64,000 nucleotides of DNA from a virus. The stretch is taken from positions 48,532 to 112,531 of the IMG/VR virus record IMGVR_UViG_3300034112_000721; one strand, 5' to 3'. Position numbers and translations under genes: made by a program. The notes under the pieces were generated by a model, which ran no database searches, had not been told where the DNA came from, and saw only the letters and a list, made by a program, of their open reading frames with translations. Positions 1 to 48,533 of the stretch are shown here, piece after piece. The stretch's first letter is position 1, and every line of letters begins with the position of its first letter.

Positions 1-2125
1 CAATGTTCATAACCCATTGCTTATATTTAGCATCAGCATCAGGATCTTTTAATTCCATTTTATCTCCATCTATGTAAATTATTTTGTTTTTTTCTTCATA
101 TGGATCTTTTTTTGATTTGAGATCAATTTCTTTTGCGTCTTGAACAAAATCACGTACAGCAAGATTTACCTCTCCAGGTTTAGTTTTAGGTGCACTAGCT
201 AATTTTTCAACTGCAGCAAGACTTTTTGGTTTTGCTGTTGCTCTAGCAGCACTAACATTACTAGAAGGTTTAGATTTATTTTCTGATTCAGAGATTGCCT
301 TAGTAATATAATTAGCCATATTACCAAGACCACCAGCAGCACCACTAGCAATTAATCTTGAAAGCTCAGCAGCTTTTTCTTTTTCTTGAAGTTGTTTTAT
401 TGGATTACCTCCTTTATCCATTCTAGTTAATGAAGGTATAGAAATGTCTTCTATTATATATCCACCTTTTCTGTATTCTTCTATTTGATTATCATCAAGT
501 TCAAGTTCAATATAACTAGGTGCTCCAATCATATTTCTTAAAAAACTCTGTGCATCAGAATCTGCAATTGAAGGATTTTCAGTTGCTATATTTCTACCAT
601 AAACATTTGTAATTGGCCTATAACCAATTTTTCTATCTTCATCTACAGCATGCTGAAATGTTTCATGTGCAGGTGATTTTAAATATTCTCCTGTATTTTG
701 ATTAATACTATATGCATGATAATAACCATCACTCTCTTTGGGTTGATCATAATTAAATTTTTCTGGTCTTCCCTCAGAATCCCAATAACCCCTTATATCA
801 TATGTAGCATCATCTGTTTGAAGATTTTCAGGAAGTGTAGCATAAAATTTTTGAAATTCTATTTCTTCTTCTGGTGACAGTTTAGTAATACCACCATTTT
901 GTTTCCTTATAAGATTACCTATAGAATGTCCATAGCTTGCTTCTGGTAATTCTACACCATCTTTAAATATTTGTCCTGCACTTCCTAATTTATTAATAAC
1001 AGATTGTTTATTATCTATATGTCTATTTATTCCCAGTTCTTTTATTTTAGCTATCTTAGCTTTATCTGATCCTGTTGCAAATATTCTATCTTCAGATATT
1101 CCCGCAGCTCTTGCTCTTTCTATCATATCTGGTGTTACTTCAGCTCTAGCAGATATTATATATTTTTCATTAGGCATGGATTGAGCCATTTGTAAACCTC
1201 TATCTGTGCTAAGTGTATCATCAAAGTCAAATGAAATTATTTCACCTCCTATTTTTTTATATTTTAACTTTTTAAGATTTTCTAAAATGCTTTCTATTCT
1301 TTGTTCTTCTTGTCTCGCCTCTCCTTCTATTGTAGATGGATTCATATACATTCTTTCCTGTGCTAAATTTAGTATTTTCTCTTCTGGCATATCAGGATTT
1401 TCTTGCATAATTTGATCAAAAGCTTGATCAAATTCAACACCTCTTCTATCATAATAAGCACCTATTGCTTCATCTGATGCAACATATGGATTAGGCCTAA
1501 GACCTACTGAACCGTATGTACTCATTTTACCATCCATATTTTGTTTATCATGAAAAAGTTCATGCGCCAACCACCAAGGATTATTTATATTTTCTATTGG
1601 ACTATTTGGATTATATGTTATAGTTCTAAATGCAGAATTATAACCTAATTGATGTTCAGGATTATTAGGATCATAATTTTTTATTGGAACATATGTTATA
1701 CCACCATCTTGAAAATATGGAGAATTAGGATCAAAGATTTTATTCTTTACAGATTTTGATTTTTTAAATAACGGGTTTTTTGTAAATAATATATTCCTAG
1801 CCATTAAGCTTTTGGAATATTTTTTAGGATACTTTTTACTACCACCTTTCTTAGCTTGTGGTATTTCATAAACCATGTCTCCTTCAAACTGATACTCATT
1901 ACCTGGAGTCATGTATTGTGCATTACCTAAATTATCTATACCCAATAAGTCATCTTCTACTCCTTTCATGGTTATCTTTCCAGTAGGTGTAGGTACTGCA
2001 GTAGGAAGACCTGGGTAATCCCATTGCCCTCTTTCAGAAACAATAAATCCTTGAGTAAATCTTTTTAACTCATTTGGACCACCGGGTAAACCAGCTTTTT
2101 CATATTTCTTAAAAGACTTCTTCAT
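1..2125 (-). CDS. Large multi-domain putative virion cargo/ejected protein, truncated at the window edge; contains zincin-like (HELFH) and HAD-like (DFDDTL) domains separated by xxGG motifs
   Basis: Absent from the ORF track because it has no stop in the window. Hand translation from ATG 2125 (TAATG overlap with the upstream stop) gives MKKSFKKYEKAGLPGGP...WWLAHELFHDKQ...ISFDFDDTLS...IISAR...HIDNK...KQWVMNI, in frame to position 2. It follows the tail muzzle gene, as crAss-like cargo genes do. Confidence 0.75.
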   Translation of the reverse strand, partial: MKKSFKKYEKAGLPGGPNELKRFTQGFIVSERGQWDYPGLPTAVPTPTGKITMKGVEDDLLGIDNLGNAQYMTPGNEYQFEGDMVYEIPQAKKGGSKKYPKKYSKSLMARNILFTKNPLFKKSKSVKNKIFDPNSPYFQDGGITYVPIKNYDPNNPEHQLGYNSAFRTITYNPNSPIENINNPWWLAHELFHDKQNMDGKMSTYGSVGLRPNPYVASDEAIGAYYDRRGVEFDQAFDQIMQENPDMPEEKILNLAQERMYMNPSTIEGEARQEEQRIESILENLKKLKYKKIGGEIISFDFDDTLSTDRGLQMAQSMPNEKYIISARAEVTPDMIERARAAGISEDRIFATGSDKAKIAKIKELGINRHIDNKQSVINKLGSAGQIFKDGVELPEASYGHSIGNLIRKQNGGITKLSPEEEIEFQKFYATLPENLQTDDATYDIRGYWDSEGRPEKFNYDQPKESDGYYHAYSINQNTGEYLKSPAHETFQHAVDEDRKIGYRPITNVYGRNIATENPSIADSDAQSFLRNMIGAPSYIELELDDNQIEEYRKGGYIIEDISIPSLTRMDKGGNPIKQLQEKEKAAELSRLIASGAAGGLGNMANYITKAISESENKSKPSSNVSAARATAKPKSLAAVEKLASAPKTKPGEVNLAVRDFVQDAKEIDLKSKKDPYEEKNKIIYIDGDKMELKDPDADAKYKQWVMNI

Positions 2126-17016: not shown

Positions 17017-17094
17017 TTTTTTTATAATTTAATTAAACAAAGAATATACTATAATATAGTAAAAAATTTTATAATAACAAAAAAAGCTAGAAAA

Positions 17095-17724
17095 TTATCC
17101 AGCTACTTCTGCCATATCATTATCTAATAGTCTTAAAGCTAATGGATCTGTACCAAATGTTCTTAGTTTATCCATCCAAGTTTGCATCTTATCATGCTCT
17201 TCAACTTGTTCTTTTAAGTATCCTAAACATAATTCATAAAGAATATGATCCTTATTTGACATTGCAAAATCTGCCATTTTTTTAATTTGAGTAGATACTT
17301 CTATCTCATGCTCATAAGATAACCTTACAATTTCTGGAAGACTTCCTGAAAAATCTTGTTGTGGTTGATCTAATCTTGGAGTTAATGGTTGTACTCCAAA
17401 TGATAATAAATACTTACGTGCAATATCAGCATGAGTTAATTCTTCATCTGAATACTTTCTCCATAGAGCAGCAGCACCTTTGAATCCTTTTTCATCTAAC
17501 CACATTGTCATTGACATATAAATTCTAGAAGAATACTCTTCTTGTTGAATTCTATAATTTAAATAGTCAACAGCATTATCTGTAATTAATGGGTTCATAG
17601 TAGCTACATCTGGAACTTCTTTTGATGCACCAGAACTTGGTTTATCAATACTAGGAATTCCTGTAGATGGCGGAAGTTTTACTACACTTGTATCTAATCT
17701 TTTTAATAATCTTTTCTGTTCCAT
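17095..17724 (-). CDS. Non-haem ferritin (FtnA-like) with N-terminal extension
   Basis: LN.RI..E.YSS..Y..M..W, EE..HA, HE..VS..I and EQVEE match the ferroxidase-centre pattern. Confidence 0.85.
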   Translation of the reverse strand: MEQKRLLKRLDTSVVKLPPSTGIPSIDKPSSGASKEVPDVATMNPLITDNAVDYLNYRIQQEEYSSRIYMSMTMWLDEKGFKGAAALWRKYSDEELTHADIARKYLLSFGVQPLTPRLDQPQQDFSGSLPEIVRLSYEHEIEVSTQIKKMADFAMSNKDHILYELCLGYLKEQVEEHDKMQTWMDKLRTFGTDPLALRLLDNDMAEVAG

Positions 17725-17730
17725 TTTATA

Positions 17731-18432
17731 TTAGTTGTTTCTTTCAGCAGTTTCTGTACCTCTAGAGAATTGGTTTCCAGATTCAATATCTCCAGCTATA
17801 ATACTAACTGCCTCATCTATTATTACTTCTATTATATCATCTTTAAATTCACACTCTACATTTGCAGTAGACTGAACCCCTGTATATGGATCTACACAAC
17901 CATCAATTTGTATCTTTCTAGGTTGTCTATAGTATGTAAGATCTACTTCAGAGATATTAAAGTCATTATTTGTGTAGACATTAATTCTGTCATCTATAAG
18001 TGTAGCAAATGTTTCCGCCCATTCAAAACTTGGTTGTTTTAATTTATCTCTTAAAAGTACAGATACATTACCTTCTTCTGCAAGATATACTACCATCCTT
18101 CTTTTATCACAGCAATCCTTTTGTGCATATACATCTACTCTTTTCCATTGTAAATAATCTTGAGGAATGCTTAAGAATGAATAGTCTCCTTTATCAGTTA
18201 ATCCACCAATAGTAGTTTTATAAAGAAGAACTTGTAAGTCATCCTTTCTCCGGGTAGATTGCTCATCACCTTCTTTAACAATATTAATACCGTGCAACTG
18301 CCTTCTAGACCATTCTACTTGGGCTTTATTAAATGCCTCTACTACCTGCCAACATTCTATGTTGTCGTAGTCTTGGCTATCTAATTTATTTAGCCTTTGC
18401 TTAATCTTTACAGTTATAGTACTATTTAACAT
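17731..18432 (-). CDS. Ring / head-tail adaptor protein
   Basis: FNKAQ.EW, IPQDYL, Y.R.P..I and II..AV.II pattern of crAss-like ring proteins. Confidence 0.6.
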   Translation of the reverse strand: MLNSTITVKIKQRLNKLDSQDYDNIECWQVVEAFNKAQVEWSRRQLHGINIVKEGDEQSTRRKDDLQVLLYKTTIGGLTDKGDYSFLSIPQDYLQWKRVDVYAQKDCCDKRRMVVYLAEEGNVSVLLRDKLKQPSFEWAETFATLIDDRINVYTNNDFNISEVDLTYYRQPRKIQIDGCVDPYTGVQSTANVECEFKDDIIEVIIDEAVSIIAGDIESGNQFSRGTETAERNN

Positions 18433-18434
18433 TA

Positions 18435-18929
18435 CTATCTATTTTTAGCAATTTTCTTTAAAGTCTTTGCAAGAGCTTTTCTCTTAGGAGTACAAGTAGG
18501 TTTAGTCATTGGAGTACAATATCCTTTGTGCGCAGGATTAATTGCCTTTTGAATCCACTTCTTATCAGTTGACCCACCTTTTTTAGCTTTAAACATTGGT
18601 TTATCTTCAACAGGTGCTGGGGGCGTAGAAGTTTTTGGAACTCCTCTTAAAACTCCTTTTAAAGTTCTTGTTTCCTTAGCTCTTTCAGGCTCACCATAAT
18701 TTTTTTTAACTACTGTTTTATAGTTACCATCTGGAGAATAAAACTTCATCTTTGCTTCTTTTGGTGCTTTATCACTTAAAGCTCCTCCATTATCAAATTT
18801 AGTTCTTGCAGGTTCTCTTTTACCTATAGGAGTATAGCCTTGATCTTTAGCAGATCTAATCTTACCAGGATATCCTCTCTGTACTTTTACAGATGCTCCA
18901 AACTTTGCAGTAGTCTTTTTAGTTGCCAT
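18435..18929 (-). CDS. Small Lys-rich protein (KKWIQKAI...ALAKTLKK motif)
   Basis: ORF track; very basic; contains FDNGG and AKKGG. Confidence 0.7.
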   Translation of the reverse strand: MATKKTTAKFGASVKVQRGYPGKIRSAKDQGYTPIGKREPARTKFDNGGALSDKAPKEAKMKFYSPDGNYKTVVKKNYGEPERAKETRTLKGVLRGVPKTSTPPAPVEDKPMFKAKKGGSTDKKWIQKAINPAHKGYCTPMTKPTCTPKRKALAKTLKKIAKNR

Positions 18930-18933
18930 GACT

Positions 18934-18972
18934 TTACTTTTTTACTTTACCTTTATTTCTACAGCTACACAT
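18934..18972 (-). CDS. Possible 12-aa basic micropeptide MCSCRNKGKVKK
   Basis: ATG-TAA ORF that fills the gap between two operon genes; composition matches its neighbours. Confidence 0.4.
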   Translation of the reverse strand: MCSCRNKGKVKK

Positions 18973-18974
18973 GA

Positions 18975-19313
18975 TTATTTCTTTTTAGAGCCACCTTTTT
19001 TCATGTAACCCATTTTATTTCTAACAGCTGTTGGTAATTTAGACAATCCAACTTTTCCTGCAGGAACTGGTTTAAGTGATCCACCAGTAGCCATTTTTTT
19101 AACAGCACCACCTTTCTTCATAGTAGGGTTAGTTCCCATTTGATTCTTAGAAATATCTGTGTTACCATTAGTAGGGCGCATTGGTAGGCCATTTAATGGA
19201 ATACCGTAGTTATAATCTGTAGCTCCACCTTTAGCCATCTTTTTTACTTTCTTAACAGGACCACCAGCTTTCATTTTGCCGCAACCCATTTTACAAGTTT
19301 TCATAGTTTTCAT
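18975..19313 (-). CDS. Small Lys-rich protein with five MxxGG motifs
   Basis: MKAGG, MAKGG, MKKGG, MATGG, MKKGG. Confidence 0.7.
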   Translation of the reverse strand: MKTMKTCKMGCGKMKAGGPVKKVKKMAKGGATDYNYGIPLNGLPMRPTNGNTDISKNQMGTNPTMKKGGAVKKMATGGSLKPVPAGKVGLSKLPTAVRNKMGYMKKGGSKKK

Positions 19314-19331
19314 AGTAATATATATAATAAG

Positions 19332-19721
19332 TTAACAATTCCACTTTCTTAAAGACTTGTTGATTCTAGAGTTAGGATCATTAGCAGTCTTTGAGCTTGT
19401 TAGTTTTTTCTTCATACCAGACATTCTAGCACAAAAGCTTTTTCTTCTATTGGCATCTTTACTTCCAGCTTTTAGTTTAGAAGGTTTAGTAGTTACTGCT
19501 GTCTGAAGTTTACTTCCTGGATTTTCTCTTCTATAAGAAGCAACTCCTTTAGCATTAAGACCTCCTTCTGGATTCTTACCTTCTTTTCTTTGCCATGCTG
19601 GAGTAGAGCCACCTTTCTTCATTTTATGATCTGAGTCTCTCATTATAGAGCCATCAGGCATTACATGATAACCTTTTGGTATATTAAGAGCAGCTTTCAT
19701 TAATTTTGAATTCCTTGCCAT
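19332..19721 (-). CDS. Small basic protein, DUF6321-like
   Basis: PAWQRKEGKNPEGGLNAKG.ASY...RRKSFCARM.G...SLRKWNC pattern recalled from this phage family; preceded by an H.MPDG..M motif. Confidence 0.7.
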   Translation of the reverse strand: MARNSKLMKAALNIPKGYHVMPDGSIMRDSDHKMKKGGSTPAWQRKEGKNPEGGLNAKGVASYRRENPGSKLQTAVTTKPSKLKAGSKDANRRKSFCARMSGMKKKLTSSKTANDPNSRINKSLRKWNC

Positions 19722-19723
19722 GA

Positions 19724-19894
19724 CTATTTTTTTACACAGTTATTATATGTTTTACCATACATCTTTTTAGTACCTTTCTTTTCATAACCTGGCCAACAAC
19801 TCTTTGCACTTCCACCAGCTTTCATCTTAGGCTTCTTACCAGCTATCTTCATTGAGATAGCTATTGCTGCTTGTTGTGCCCTACTTTTTGCCAT
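19724..19894 (-). CDS. Small basic protein, 56 aa (CWPGY...NCVK motif)
   Basis: Hand translation MAKSRAQQAAIAISMKIAGKKPKMKAGGSAKSCWPGYEKKGTKKMYGKTYNNCVKK; fills the operon gap. Confidence 0.75.
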   Translation of the reverse strand: MAKSRAQQAAIAISMKIAGKKPKMKAGGSAKSCWPGYEKKGTKKMYGKTYNNCVKK

Positions 19895-20153
19895 TACTTT
19901 TTCCTTTACCTTTATACTTATAATCAGGGTTATCTCTATGCCATTTCTTTGTAGCAGCTACACCCTGCGCAACTGTTTTGGCTCTACCTATTTTAGTAAG
20001 ATCAATTGTGTCCCATTGACCTTTATCTTTAGTAGGATGGTTGACCATAATATGACCAACCTTTCCTTCTCCTTTTTTTGTAGTCTTCTTATATACTACA
20101 TGTTTTTCACCACCGGCAGTAACTTTTACTTTCTTAGTTTTTGCCTTTGCCAT
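19881..20153 (-). CDS. Small Lys-rich protein
   Basis: ORF track; tight operon packing. Confidence 0.7.
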   Translation of the reverse strand: MAKAKTKKVKVTAGGEKHVVYKKTTKKGEGKVGHIMVNHPTKDKGQWDTIDLTKIGRAKTVAQGVAATKKWHRDNPDYKYKGKGKSNGKK

Positions 20154-20155
20154 TA

Positions 20156-20401
20156 TTAAATCTTTTTACCAGAAGCAATACTGTTAAATTCTTTTGCTTT
20201 CTCAGCTGCCATCTTTTTTACATCTGCCATTAACTTTGCATTCTTTTGTATTTCAGAAGCTCTTTGTAATGTAGACATAGCAGATTCAACTTCCCATTTT
20301 CTCATTTCTGCTTTGTTACCACCAAAAATAGAAATACCAACTGAAGAATTTGCTTTCTTAGCTGGTGTGGATTTTTTAGTTGTTGTTCTTTTAATTGCCA
20401 T
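20156..20401 (-). CDS. Small basic protein
   Basis: ORF track; tight operon packing. Confidence 0.7.
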   Translation of the reverse strand: MAIKRTTTKKSTPAKKANSSVGISIFGGNKAEMRKWEVESAMSTLQRASEIQKNAKLMADVKKMAAEKAKEFNSIASGKKI

Positions 20402-20403
20402 AA

Positions 20404-20670
20404 CTATCTAAATCTTGCTGCCTTTTGGGCTATGCCCTTGGGCTGTTTAACAAATTGTTTTCCTTTACTATTACCTTTAGCCTTTGCTTTATTTGTTGCA
20501 GCTTTCTCTCCTGCTGATAAAGAACCCCAAGCAGCTTCAGGTAAATATCTTTTTTTACCTTTTGACTTTACCTCTTTAGAAGAACCTTTCTTCTTATTTG
20601 CATAAGTTCCAGATGTCATCCATTTTTGTGCTGACCAATCTCTTAAACTTTGCTGAGGATCTTTAGCCAT
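20404..20670 (-). CDS. Small basic protein resembling the C-terminal half of DUF5872
   Basis: QQSL..W..QKW, RYLP.AAW and GKQFVKQP motifs. Confidence 0.65.
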   Translation of the reverse strand: MAKDPQQSLRDWSAQKWMTSGTYANKKKGSSKEVKSKGKKRYLPEAAWGSLSAGEKAATNKAKAKGNSKGKQFVKQPKGIAQKAARFR

Positions 20671-20870
20671 TACTTCTTGGTTTTATAACCACCACCTTTA
20701 GACTTATATTCTTTAGCTAAAAGTTGTGCTTTTCTTGCAGACCATTCTCCAGGATCTCCACCCTTAGAACCAGCTTTAATTCTTTCAAACAAAGACTTAC
20801 GCATACCAGGCTTAGTGTAAACACCAGCCTGGTTAACGCGACTTTTAGTAGTAGATTTCTTTAGTGGCAT
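20670..20870 (-). CDS. Small basic protein resembling the N-terminal half of DUF5872
   Basis: YTKP..R...AGSKGG.PGEWSARKAQLLA..YK..GGGY. Confidence 0.7.
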   Translation of the reverse strand: MPLKKSTTKSRVNQAGVYTKPGMRKSLFERIKAGSKGGDPGEWSARKAQLLAKEYKSKGGGYKTKK

Positions 20871-21244
20871 TATTTCATTTTTTTAGCACCACCTTTTTTC
20901 ATCATAGAAGCACCATACATAGCTTTAGGAACTGCAGTTTTAGGAGCTTTAGAAGTTCCACCTGAACGTCCTTTAGCTATTTTAGATGCAGAAACTTTAG
21001 CATTCTCTCCAGAGATTACACCTTTAGAGCCAGCTACTTTAGAAGCAGTTACACTTTTATTAGCATTAGTCATTCCACCAGTTTTCATTTTTTTACCAGC
21101 TGTAGCACCTACCGGACTTTTTGCAGCTTTGCCAGCCATAGCACCAAATGTAGCACCTGCTGCACCTCCAGCAAGTTTACCAGCTTCATAACCATAATTC
21201 ATGGCTGAAGTTCCTTTTTTAGATTTTTTCTTTGGAGTTAACAT
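20870..21244 (-). CDS. Lys/Ala/Gly-rich histone-like protein
   Basis: Low-complexity basic sequence; contains MKTGG and MKKGG. Confidence 0.7.
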   Translation of the reverse strand: MLTPKKKSKKGTSAMNYGYEAGKLAGGAAGATFGAMAGKAAKSPVGATAGKKMKTGGMTNANKSVTASKVAGSKGVISGENAKVSASKIAKGRSGGTSKAPKTAVPKAMYGASMMKKGGAKKMK

Positions 21245-21256
21245 TTTATATAATTT

Positions 21257-22282
21257 TTAAGAGTTCCATAATTTTTCAACAGAAGCTGTAACATCTTTAA
21301 GAATATCTTCATTTAAAGGATTCTTAAAGTATTCTACAACATCTGATACATTTCTACCAAGTAAGCTGTTAGACTTAGCATGATAAATATGACCATCTGC
21401 CTTACTTATAATATACTTAAAAAATACGGAATCTCTAACAATTGATTTAATTTTTAGTGTTTCCATATCCATATTTACTGCATCAATGAAAGATTTAGCT
21501 GCTCTTTCTTTATTAGTCTCACCACCCTCTCCATTAATGTACATATCCATATTCTCATAGATAATGTCATTTGGTGTTGATTTTCTGTACTGTGTACTAT
21601 TAAGATCAACAACTTTTGCAATGTAGAATAGTTTAGTACTATTCTTATCAAATAATTTCTGAAGTTCAGAAAGTGCTTTGTTACGCATTTTCTTGTACTC
21701 AGTTCTAACCATCACAGTTTCTTCTTCTTTATCTAGATAAAACTTAGGTGGTTTTGCTTTTGATCTTGCATCTTCATAACTCTTTGCTATAATTGAAAAT
21801 GCCCCAGCTTCAATAGCATAAATCTTAATTCTATCAAAAGGATCTTTTGGATCTAAAAATACTGGCTCATTACCACATTTAATATCAATCTTATTCCAGA
21901 AATCTTTATTGTCTGGTTTAAGTAATTTAACTTTGTTCCAAAAATCCTTATCCTCAATATCTAAAACATTAGCTGCAAGTTCTCTTTCAAGTTCTGCAAC
22001 TGCTGTTCTTATTTCTCTAATTTTTGCTTCTCTTTGATCTGATGGTAATGTTTTAATTTCTGGAGCAAATTCATTAAGCCCAGTAATATATCTTGTTACA
22101 CCATTTACTTCAAGACAAGCTAATTGTTCTTGGTGCTTTACACCATCAAACAAAACTTGTTGGTAATTTTCTAATCCCATGTTTGACATTCTGCTGTCAA
22201 AGTATGGTCTAATAGCAATAGCTGTTTTTCTTGCGGTGGCAGCTTTGTTAATTTCCACCATTGTAAATTCTGCGTTTTCCAT
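21257..22282 (-). CDS. Conserved crAss-like protein downstream of the major capsid protein
   Basis: Gene order; C-terminal LG.N....VEY.KNP.N pattern. Confidence 0.6.
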   Translation of the reverse strand: MENAEFTMVEINKAATARKTAIAIRPYFDSRMSNMGLENYQQVLFDGVKHQEQLACLEVNGVTRYITGLNEFAPEIKTLPSDQREAKIREIRTAVAELERELAANVLDIEDKDFWNKVKLLKPDNKDFWNKIDIKCGNEPVFLDPKDPFDRIKIYAIEAGAFSIIAKSYEDARSKAKPPKFYLDKEEETVMVRTEYKKMRNKALSELQKLFDKNSTKLFYIAKVVDLNSTQYRKSTPNDIIYENMDMYINGEGGETNKERAAKSFIDAVNMDMETLKIKSIVRDSVFFKYIISKADGHIYHAKSNSLLGRNVSDVVEYFKNPLNEDILKDVTASVEKLWNS

Positions 22283-22318: not shown

Positions 22319-22344
22319 AAAGAGGGAGATTTTACTCTCCCTCT
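22319..22344 (-). terminator. Hairpin/terminator after the MCP gene
   Basis: GAGGGAGA...TCTCCCTC inverted repeat followed by TTTT on the minus strand. Confidence 0.7.
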
Positions 22345-22358
22345 CATACTCTGATCTA

Positions 22359-41723: not shown

Positions 41724-42356
41724 TTATTCGTTATCATAAAACATTCTTTCTGAATCTTCTGTATGCCACTTATCAAATCCCTCACAGTTATAGTAATCTT
41801 TATTAACTAAGTAATCTGGTTTTTCAGGGAATGGTTTAGTTACAAAACTTGGTTCAGACCACTTGATTCTATTATTTGGTTGAAGAGCTATTTGTCCGTT
41901 GTCAAGTAAAATCACATGATGACTCTTGTGTTCTAGTGGGTCTTCTGCTAAAGATATGTCAGTATTAATATCTCCGCTACCCCAGTTTATTGTTGCATAG
42001 TAACTACCTGGGTAGAACTTGTGATCTTTCATATATACTTCTACAGGAGTATCATACAAATATGATAGATGTAACAAAGTAAAGTTATAAGAGAAACAAT
42101 TCCATATCTGTAGAAAGTGAAATGGTAGATCTGGATCTGGTAACTCAGGCTTAGTCAGTAGGGCATGGCTTGGTAACTTGTCTCTAAGTACGCCATTCTC
42201 TAACAATACCTGGAACAATGCTGCTTGTCCTGGTAGACATCTTACAGATATAATTACCCCCGGGGTAAATTCTCCATGACCTTTTGTACCTTGGTACATG
42301 TACTCATTCCTAACAAATACCTTGAGAGGAAAGAAGTTGTGTTCTATGTATGCCAT
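41724..42356 (-). CDS. Conserved hypothetical phage protein
   Basis: VR.EY.Y, G.....LP.HA, LQ.W.CFS and HK..H...L.NG..A.QPNNR pattern. Confidence 0.65.
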   Translation of the reverse strand: MAYIEHNFFPLKVFVRNEYMYQGTKGHGEFTPGVIISVRCLPGQAALFQVLLENGVLRDKLPSHALLTKPELPDPDLPFHFLQIWNCFSYNFTLLHLSYLYDTPVEVYMKDHKFYPGSYYATINWGSGDINTDISLAEDPLEHKSHHVILLDNGQIALQPNNRIKWSEPSFVTKPFPEKPDYLVNKDYYNCEGFDKWHTEDSERMFYDNE

Positions 42357-48514: not shown

Positions 48515-48533
48515 ATTATTATGATTTATTAAT

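Follow-up and report, generated by a model that had tools for sequence, protein, structure and literature searches.

A hypervariable cassette of small basic proteins sharing a di-glycine peptide among the late genes of an aquatic crAss-like phage

Introduction

The internal proteins IPI, IPII and IPIII of phage T4 are small and basic, are encoded at a hyperplastic locus, share one short peptide and travel in the head, from which they enter the host with the DNA. The T4 capsid targeting sequence is N-terminal, comprises ~10 residues and is removed by the gp21 prohead protease at L-x-E. Encapsulin cargo-loading peptides, short, often C-terminal and Gly-containing, direct unrelated cargo into an HK97-fold shell. 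The record of phage T7 notes that its virions deliver gp6.7 into the host cell. Here we describe a cassette of nine small minus-strand genes at positions 18435-21244 of a 64,000-nucleotide stretch of viral DNA (positions 48,532 to 112,531 of the IMG/VR record IMGVR_UViG_3300034112_000721; hereafter the window) from an aquatic (lake or sea) crAss-like phage. The genes are real, the cassette is hypervariable, and a peptide ending in Gly-Gly is enriched in its proteins, lies at the joints between their modules and is common to large cargo-like proteins of the same genome. Our preferred but tentative reading is that the cassette proteins are head-internal passengers, with the GG peptide as a joint or address label; we infer their packaging, DNA binding and the address-label role from the evidence below.

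A first-pass annotation of this DNA had described the locus as an operon of Lys-rich, protamine-like core peptides that condense packaged DNA and are targeted or matured through one di-Gly signal, analogous to adenovirus pVII/mu. Parts of that description are retained here and others are replaced.

Results

Nine small basic genes

The nine open reading frames (ORFs) are lettered A to I in order of transcription. They encode proteins of 56-164 aa and are spaced by -14 (overlap) to +45 nt. All nine products are basic, with isoelectric points of 10.3-10.7, net charges of +11 to +30, 21-28% K+R and 2-9% D+E. F, G, H and I contain exactly two cysteines each, which might pair through disulfides or a metal, and A-E contain none. 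The first-pass count of about 11 ORFs reduces to nine solid ones and one doubtful ORF of 12 aa. Two ORFs had been reported as missing from the gene track: one of them, F (19724-19894), is real, having homologues in 16 related loci and PHROG matches, while the other, at 18934-18972, is too short to judge. The cassette contains the following, in window coordinates:

20870-21244, minus strand: A, 124 aa, low-complexity Lys/Gly/Ala protein; MKTGG at nt 21074-21088; C-terminal MKKGG at nt 20888-20902, then a basic tail
20670-20870, minus strand: B, 66 aa, phrog_17747; without the GG motif
20404-20670, minus strand: C, 88 aa, phrog_14910; without the GG motif
20156-20401, minus strand: D, 81 aa, basic; present in 26 related loci; without the GG motif
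19881-20153, minus strand: E, 90 aa, predicted small domain of beta-sheet and helix; fused to F and/or G in some relatives
19724-19894, minus strand: F, 56 aa; DUF3008-like N-terminal peptide, MKAGG (nt 19811-19825) and CWPGY..NCVK Cys-pair module
19332-19721, minus strand: G, 129 aa; N-terminal GYHVMPDG hairpin, predicted disordered MKKGG linker (nt 19608-19622) and DUF6321 (residues 48-127, nt 19341-19580)
18975-19313, minus strand: H, 112 aa; five MxxGG at nt 19260-19274, 19224-19238, 19107-19121, 19080-19094 and 18990-19004
18435-18929, minus strand: I, 164 aa; FDNGG (nt 18783-18797) and AKKGG (nt 18573-18587), then the KKWIQKAI...C..C module
18934-18972, minus strand: ORF of 12 aa (MCSCRNKGKVKK), doubtful, too short to validate

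B matches PHROG 17747 (E 2.3e-34, profile positions 4-63 of 63) and comprises 4422 clusters in the protein database; its nearest ESM Atlas clusters are all viral. C matches PHROG 14910 (E 1e-25, profile positions 4-79 of 80). Residues 48-127 of G match Pfam DUF6321 (PF19846) with 76.7 bits and E 2.2e-21, at a gathering cut-off of 28.5, and both F and G match several PHROGs that hold the CWPGY module and DUF6321 in one longer chain. The KKWIQKAI...C..C module of I also occurs in relatives as a free-standing 48-aa protein. Pfam and PHROG searches returned no family for D.

Ratios of nonsynonymous to synonymous substitution rates (dN/dS), computed against orthologues in related contigs, were 0.06 for C, 0.11 for E, 0.17 for both B and D, and 0.25-0.29 for F, H and I. 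The yardstick is 0.08-0.13 for the capsid gene, the neighbouring 341-aa gp33-like gene and the ring genes. A is looser at 0.58, a value resting on one pair only. Judged by the PHROG and Pfam matches of B, C, F and G and by dN/dS of 0.06-0.29 for seven members, the nine genes are real and most of them appear to be under selection.

AlphaFold2 (AF2) models reached a predicted local distance difference test score (pLDDT) of 74 for E and of 79 overall for G, in which the helical DUF6321 domain scores 81-90 and the MKKGG linker below 50. Sequence searches of the Protein Data Bank (PDB) with B, C, E and G gave nothing significant. Foldseek and VIA-align searches with the models of G and E gave best Z values of 4.3 and 3.5, with Foldseek E above 1. 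At the level of these models neither G nor E has a recognised structural relative, which does not mean that their folds are new. The term protamine-like thus suits the low-complexity, disordered members A and H; it does not suit B, C, D, E and G, with their purifying selection and, for G and E, confident models.

Cassette proteins in the first position often have one Gly/Ala-rich, hydrophobic (Gly-zipper-like) stretch within a Lys-rich chain. Residues 24-40 of A form such a stretch, and further examples lie in related loci (L023:10732-11625, L083:10956-12497, L018:13426-14115 and L051:14892-15623). It could be a membrane-inserting segment.

A GG peptide at module joints

All the motifs listed in the first-pass annotation are present: MKTGG and MKKGG in A; MKAGG in F; MKKGG in G; MKAGG, MAKGG, MKKGG, MATGG and MKKGG in H; and FDNGG and AKKGG in I. 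Its statement that the proteins share the motif holds for four or five of the nine (A, F, G, H and, weakly, I) and fails for B, C and D, which have none, and for E, which has only VTAGG. Nine MxxGG fall within A, F, G and H, and four in the remaining ~34,600 residues of the genome. With expected counts taken from within-protein shuffles, the broader form [MFY]xxGG was observed 10 times in the cassette (1.2 expected), 16 times in the 843-, 1432- and 1645-aa cargo-like proteins encoded beside the muzzle gene (3.5 expected) and 14 times in the other ~30,500 residues (14.1 expected). The motif type is thus common to the cassette and to the three cargo-like proteins, much as had been proposed. Equal abundance in replication proteins had been named as evidence against such a signal; counted by gene class, the motif stays at chance level outside the cassette and the cargo-like proteins. 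The relatives give a similar picture, with 296 occurrences against 31 expected in cassette proteins, and 95 against 82 expected in the other genes of the same loci.

Over 292 distinct contexts the consensus reads K-K-[M 72% / Y 18% / F 10%]-[K/Q/A]-[K/T]-G-G-[S/A/T/M]-x-K-K, and GG is followed by a small residue, S, A or T, in 61% of them. The codons are biased to AAA and GGT. The Gly codons themselves vary among GGT, GGA, GGC and GGG, mostly as GGT GGT, and the signal therefore lies at the protein level and is not a hidden ribosome-binding site. The latter possibility (AAAGGAGG) was ruled out by this synonymous variation and by late genes that lack a Shine-Dalgarno sequence. A second candidate explanation, that the motif Met is a relic start codon of fused genes, was ruled out because none of 306 cassette proteins begins with the motif. 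In 28 of the 306 it is C-terminal, with a basic tail of 4-17 residues behind it.

Homology breakpoints between differently built proteins cluster on the motif, which places it at module joints. High-scoring segment pairs start at -3 to -5, and end at 0 to +4, from its last Gly, at about six-fold the random frequency. The earlier observation that the motif sits just before mini-domains is borne out in G (MKKGG at residues 34-38, DUF6321 at 48-127), F (MKAGG at 24-28, CWPGY at 33) and I (AKKGG at 115-119, KKWIQKAI at 123). Among H orthologues, the conserved alignment columns are almost only GG and KKGG, with large insertions between them.

The three cargo-like proteins occupy the position of the crAss001 cargo genes. 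The 1645-aa protein, whose C-terminal part is encoded at window positions 2-2125, carries SLT and ART-PolyVal domains. In the crAss001 cargo protein gp45, FxxGG appears three times, where 1.2 would be expected. No published work on the motif was found in the searchable literature.

A hypervariable slot between structural genes

The genome is 112.4 kb long with 32% GC, and its contig ends share a 127-base overlap, so it is complete; IMG/VR classes it as having direct terminal repeats and being 100% complete. A Crassvirales structural module of ring-protein, muzzle, portal, terminase and capsid genes surrounds the cassette. PHROGs recognised the terminase, portal and capsid genes, and Pfam recognised CrAss_Ring_1 (5.9e-14), Ring_2 (2.8e-23) and crAss_MUZ (5.7e-28); the Ring_3_4 match (E 0.0017) is below the cut-off. 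Giant cargo genes and RNA-polymerase-sized genes lie upstream. The nearest cultured relatives by capsid are distant: Leptolyngbya phage Lbo-JY46 (28% identity), gut crAss-like phages and Cellulophaga phages. The immediate surroundings of the cassette are:

22320..22345, minus strand: strong terminator-like hairpin 3' of the capsid gene, ahead of the cassette's transcription unit
21257..22282, minus strand: 341-aa gene, left flank; weak syntenic homologue of crAss001 gp33, kept in 66 related loci
17731..18432, minus strand: homologue of crAss-type tail ring protein 3/4, right flank
17095-17724, minus strand: ferritin gene (Pfam Ferritin, 3.5e-26) with an N-terminal extension of ~50 aa, directly after ring protein 3/4 in the same late unit
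17085..17104, minus strand: terminator-like hairpin overlapping the 3' end of the ferritin gene and extending beyond its stop codon, a likely transcription-unit end

The order of the unit is therefore hairpin (22345-22320), 341-aa gene, nine small genes, ring protein 3/4, ferritin and hairpin (17104-17085). A hairpin scan found no terminator inside this unit, the nine-gene row included. Start contexts of the cassette genes are A-rich and match those of other late genes, and no Shine-Dalgarno sequence was found at the starts of late genes, the cassette included. These features support co-transcription of the cassette with structural genes in one predicted late unit. The operon of the first-pass annotation stands in this sense, as real, very basic, late genes that share one unit; its placement directly behind the capsid gene needs correction, as the row directly follows the 341-aa gp33-like gene, which itself comes after the capsid gene. 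Ferritin is present in only one or two related loci. As a neighbour of an HK97-fold capsid module, it is reminiscent of encapsulin cargo.

Searching IMG/VR with the capsid returned more than 590 contigs, of which the best 80, with capsids 89-98% identical, were used as relatives. All 45 loci with both flanks hold basic proteins (K+R mostly 0.20-0.35) in the slot between the 341-aa gene and ring 3/4. The slot ranges from 866 to 4905 bp in these loci, and its content differs widely at capsid identities of at least 89%. Among the best 80 loci, B and C occur in 4, D in 26, E in 19 and G in 44. The modules are separate or fused, with E+F+G, F+G, E+G and H+I all found, and in most relatives the slot also holds a 112-aa DUF5872 protein. 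The closest relative has an Endonuclease_7 (HNH), homing-endonuclease-like gene in the slot (L006:13733-14143), and another has an LCIB-type beta-carbonic-anhydrase-like gene (L043:8589-9533); the slot thus serves as a landing site for accessory genes in general.

In crAss001, gp33 is directly followed by gp34 and gp35, and in Lbo-JY46 the counterpart of the 341-aa gene is directly followed by a ring-sized gene. The cassette is thus a clade-specific, hypervariable insertion between the gp33-like gene and tail-ring gene 3/4.

A nearly invariant peptide in H

Residues 77-108 of H form a portable element:

18990..19085, minus strand: portable peptide in H, GG-SLKPVP-x-G-x-x-GLSKLPTAVRNKMGY-MKKGG

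Its full form spans ~30 residues, GGSLKPVPxGNKGLSKLPTxVRNKMGYMKKGG. The portion G-L-x-K-L-P-x-x-V-R-N-K-M-G-Y-M-K-K-G-G is nearly invariant over 34 distinct contexts drawn from 48 of the 80 loci retrieved with H, and 61 of these 80 loci are without the marker genes of this clade. A block of twelve consecutive residues, VRNKMGYMKKGG, shows no variation across many phage lineages, which points to selection on the peptide. Its carriers are small basic proteins of many uncultured aquatic phages, including other types (for example L196:673-936, L203:1414-1788 and L192:4068-5222). In many cases another conserved C-terminal peptide, MRGGGAATRGxNFNRGY, comes after it. The ~30-residue peptide was not found in GenBank phages or in the searchable literature.

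Elsewhere, genes for H-type proteins lie directly behind a portal gene, ahead of the terminase and portal genes, or ahead of genes for the tail and its fibres. In several unrelated viral contigs (L193, L199, L203, L205-L210 and L212) they are directly followed by homologues of a 210-aa gene that the window carries at 41724-42356 (minus strand; phrog_3704, annotated as ferredoxin/moron). A 129-aa gene beside H-type proteins in other phages was considered as a protease and rejected; its product has no HExxH motif and looks like a membrane, holin-like protein.

Modules shared with unrelated phages

DUF6321 occurs in 526 GenBank phage records, mostly of T4-like cyanophages, where it ends a basic protein of 460-700 aa. 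That protein also carries CWxGY, GY-x-M-x-DG and DUF5872-type modules and has no K-K-M-x-x-G-G joints. Sullivan et al. 2010 (PMC3037559) placed the cyanophage gene (T4-GC119) in a hypervariable region, within what may be a mobile cassette. In cyanophage S-SCSM1, the virion proteome of CsCl-purified particles comprised 45 proteins by mass spectrometry (PMC9602691). ORF29 of this phage (DUF6321/DUF5872) carries the record label 'virion protein', and its individual mass-spectrometry row was not confirmed. S-CREM2 ORF137 is present in the S-CREM2 virion proteome, and no link between it and DUF6321 was established.

B keeps 74-95% identity in 80 viral contigs, and only a minority of these contigs have the capsid genes of this clade; a universal partner such as DNA would account for this better than one particular capsid. 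B, C and G also lie side by side in many unrelated viral contigs. All three are conserved in phages of SAR11, Roseobacter, Methylophilales and cyanobacteria, whose capsids and hosts are unrelated. The distribution argues that the partner of the folded modules would be universal, most simply nucleic acid. DUF6321, DUF5872, phrog_17747 and phrog_14910 are all annotated 'unknown', and a full-text search found no paper on DUF6321.

Candidate proteases

Cleavage at the GG motif would call for a protease. The complete genome gave no match to Peptidase_C48, C5, S78, S77, ClpP, C39, S49 or MPTase-PolyVal; this includes the S77 prohead protease (PF03420; no match at E <= 1), the clan CE cysteine proteases (PF00770 and PF02902, Peptidase_C5 and C48) and MPTase-PolyVal (PF18818). 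Pfam and PHROG scans of the late genes likewise found no protease family. One candidate came from the cargo-like proteins:

Residues 143-330 of the 1645-aa cargo protein (locus L086:14667-15230, minus strand): HExxH module, NNPWW-x-E-HELFH-x-LQN...G-x-RPN

The H-E-x-x-H is invariant in all 33 homologous modules of large cargo-like proteins, usually just after a GG joint. The module matches Peptidase_M91 weakly and below threshold (E 0.037) and has no significant PDB or NCBIfam match. It is present in only one of five near-complete relatives, all five of which carry motif-bearing cassettes, so it is not the obligate partner of the motif, and we rejected it as the motif's obligate protease. The co-occurrence of motif and candidate protease that had been suggested as a check was accordingly not seen among the complete relatives. 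Of the proposal that the peptides are targeted or matured through one di-Gly signal, the maturation half is left without a protease (seven families are missing), and the half concerning a single di-Gly peptide common to cargo-like proteins persists. Cleavage at GG may occur but seems unlikely; the frequent copies near the C terminus resemble a tail tag more than they do a site of processing.

Discussion

We tentatively favour a passenger role because the cassette is apparently co-expressed late, its products are extremely basic and their peptide is shared only with cargo-like proteins; moreover, the neighbourhoods of H-type proteins are structural, and a homologue in S-SCSM1 is record-labelled as a virion protein. 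A packaged, DNA-associated role is plausible from these genomic features. The mini-proteins are mosaics of portable mini-domains and disordered Lys/Gly/Met spacers. The portable parts, namely DUF6321, phrog_17747, phrog_14910, the Cys-pair modules and the SKLPxxVRNKMGY peptide, are shared with many unrelated aquatic phages, and the sole conserved element of the spacers is K-K-[M/Y/F]-x-x-G-G-[S/A/T] at module joints and C-termini. On the passenger model, and in the manner of the T4 internal proteins or T7 gp6.7/gp7.3, the proteins would be made late, enter the procapsid, stay on the packaged DNA through their charge and leave the head with it. The GG peptide would serve as a flexible joint and probable address label, common to the mini-proteins and the large cargo-like proteins.

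Several observations weigh against this picture. Support for any cassette protein being in the particle is indirect. B, C and D are without the motif and E has only VTAGG, so the motif is no universal entry ticket. Pelagiphages HTVC033P and HTVC035P have B/C/G beside lysis genes and without the motif, and the cyanomyovirus DUF6321 gene shares its mobile cassette with metabolic genes (PMC3037559). Ferritin, the LCIB-like carbonic anhydrase and the HNH endonuclease are non-structural passengers in the island, and position alone therefore proves little. The cassette is missing in crAss001 and Lbo-JY46 and is therefore dispensable for building such capsids. Finally, fold searches on the AF2 models recognised no DNA-binding fold for G or E; with no significant structural relative found for either, the structural evidence speaks neither for nor against DNA binding.

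Some of these points suit a different role, in which the cassette encodes late small proteins that work inside the infected cell by binding nucleic acid, ribosomes or the nucleoid, and GG is merely a flexible linker. Such proteins might, for instance, shut off the host, protect or compact phage DNA as it replicates, or counter host defences. We regard this role as doubtful, though a real contender. It accords with the conservation of B, C and G in phages with unrelated capsids and hosts, with their varied genome positions (beside lysis genes, or in a mobile cassette with metabolic genes) and with morons in the same island; the best, non-significant fold matches are to extended basic ribosomal proteins. 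It leaves unexplained why the motif is shared with three cargo-like proteins and stays at chance level elsewhere, and it sits poorly with the virion label of the S-SCSM1 homologue and with the consistent location of H-type proteins within head or tail modules. Polyprotein-style maturation, with a cut after G-G and before S/A/T by an unrecognised phage or host protease, seems unlikely. Fused and split genes would then yield the same mature mini-proteins and short basic peptides, as in adenovirus pVII/mu or the T4 internal peptides. The motif does lie at module joints and is mostly followed by a small residue, its linker is predicted to be disordered and hence accessible, and fused and split architectures interchange among close relatives. 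Fused G (...MKKGG-S-TPAW) and free-standing G (MAK-TPAW or MAK-SPAW) start alike, and cutting would therefore give nearly the same N terminus. The invariant HExxH module of the 1645-aa cargo protein and its 33 homologues, with the weak Peptidase_M91 match, could be counted in favour; its presence in one of five motif-bearing relatives tells against it, as do the eight protease profiles without a match in the whole genome and the lack of any protease among the late genes. Furthermore, the M-x-x-G-G spacing falls outside the adenain rule (M/L/I)-x-G-G, and many motifs lie 4-17 residues from the C terminus, where a cut would free only a tiny tail. Were GG a cleavage site all the same, an as yet unrecognised protease would have to exist.

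The slot might also be a recombination hot spot for selfish or near-neutral mobile mini-genes, the motif being kept because it promotes shuffling, either by microhomology at ATG-AAA-AAA-GGT-GGT or by homing endonucleases. Its extreme variability next to capsids at least 89% identical, the Endonuclease_7 HNH gene in the closest relative's cassette, the endonuclease-flanked cassette of the cyanophage counterpart and the bias of the motif codons to AAA and GGT are in keeping with this idea. We nevertheless consider it very unlikely: most members are under purifying selection, the Gly codons vary synonymously while the amino acids are kept, the twelve-residue VRNKMGYMKKGG is invariant across many phage lineages, and the motif is enriched in the large cargo-like proteins too.

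An extension of the passenger reading, which we think quite improbable as it stands, is that K-K-[M/Y/F]-x-x-G-G (most conserved form ...VRNKMGYMKKGG) acts across many unrelated aquatic tailed phages as a portable signal for loading and ejection. Some conserved feature of the procapsid, the portal or the packaged DNA would recognise it, and any mini-domain or enzyme with the signal would become a virion passenger. If true, tailed phages would have their first general cargo-loading peptide defined by sequence, apart from the T4 targeting sequence, and the swarm of tiny basic genes in aquatic phage genomes would be explained. An address label would also predict injected phage proteins and offer a handle for loading foreign proteins into phage heads. 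The locus is a natural experiment, with 45 near-identical capsid backgrounds holding different cassettes. It supplies a sharply defined joint peptide that links mini-proteins with large crAss-type cargo-like proteins, as well as a ~30-residue peptide nearly invariant across phage lineages.

Comparison with known systems

No mention of the cassette proteins was found in the crassvirus studies consulted, and we found the GG-jointed cassette undescribed in the searchable literature as a whole. Its link with the crAss001 proteins gp45 and gp46 and with polyvalent proteins is the motif, which is common to the 843-, 1432- and 1645-aa proteins at the crAss001 cargo position; the cassette proteins differ from these cargo proteins in being tiny, extremely basic and missing from crAss001. 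The T4-GC119-type cyanophage protein shares DUF6321, the CWxGY Cys-pair, the GY-x-MxDG hairpin and the DUF5872 N-terminal module, and its gene also lies in a hypervariable region. It is, however, one chain of 460-700 aa without joints, whereas the cassette consists of separate genes or short motif-delimited fusions.

T7 gp6.7 (88 aa) and gp7.3 (99 aa) are likewise small proteins encoded beside head and tail genes; the N terminus of gp7.3 is Lys-rich and gp6.7 ends in ...FGGKK. They differ in being single conserved genes, with no homology to the cassette, no modular shuffling and no repeated motif. Encapsulin peptides have another consensus and no homology to the GG peptide, and binding of the latter to this capsid would be pure conjecture by analogy.

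The T4 internal proteins resemble the cassette in forming a hyperplastic locus of small basic proteins (here a slot of 866-4905 bp in 45 relatives). By contrast, the cassette peptide is internal or C-terminal, never N-terminal (0 of 306), and ends in G-G; this genome has no S77 protease, and there is no sequence homology. Adenovirus pVII/mu are, like the proposed passengers, basic, DNA-associated virion proteins with a signal of the hydrophobic-x-G-G type. The analogy drawn in the first-pass annotation goes no further in mechanism: no adenain or Ulp1-type protease was found, and the adenain consensus is (M/L/I)-x-G-G|x or (M/L/I)-x-G-x|G, whereas the cassette has two residues before GG (M-x-x-G-G). 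A double-jelly-roll capsid and Arg-rich proteins stand against an HK97-type tailed phage and Lys-rich ones. The T4 internal-protein and adenovirus core systems are therefore functional analogies and not family assignments, since the defining protease and the position or spacing of the signal were both tested and both set the cassette apart.

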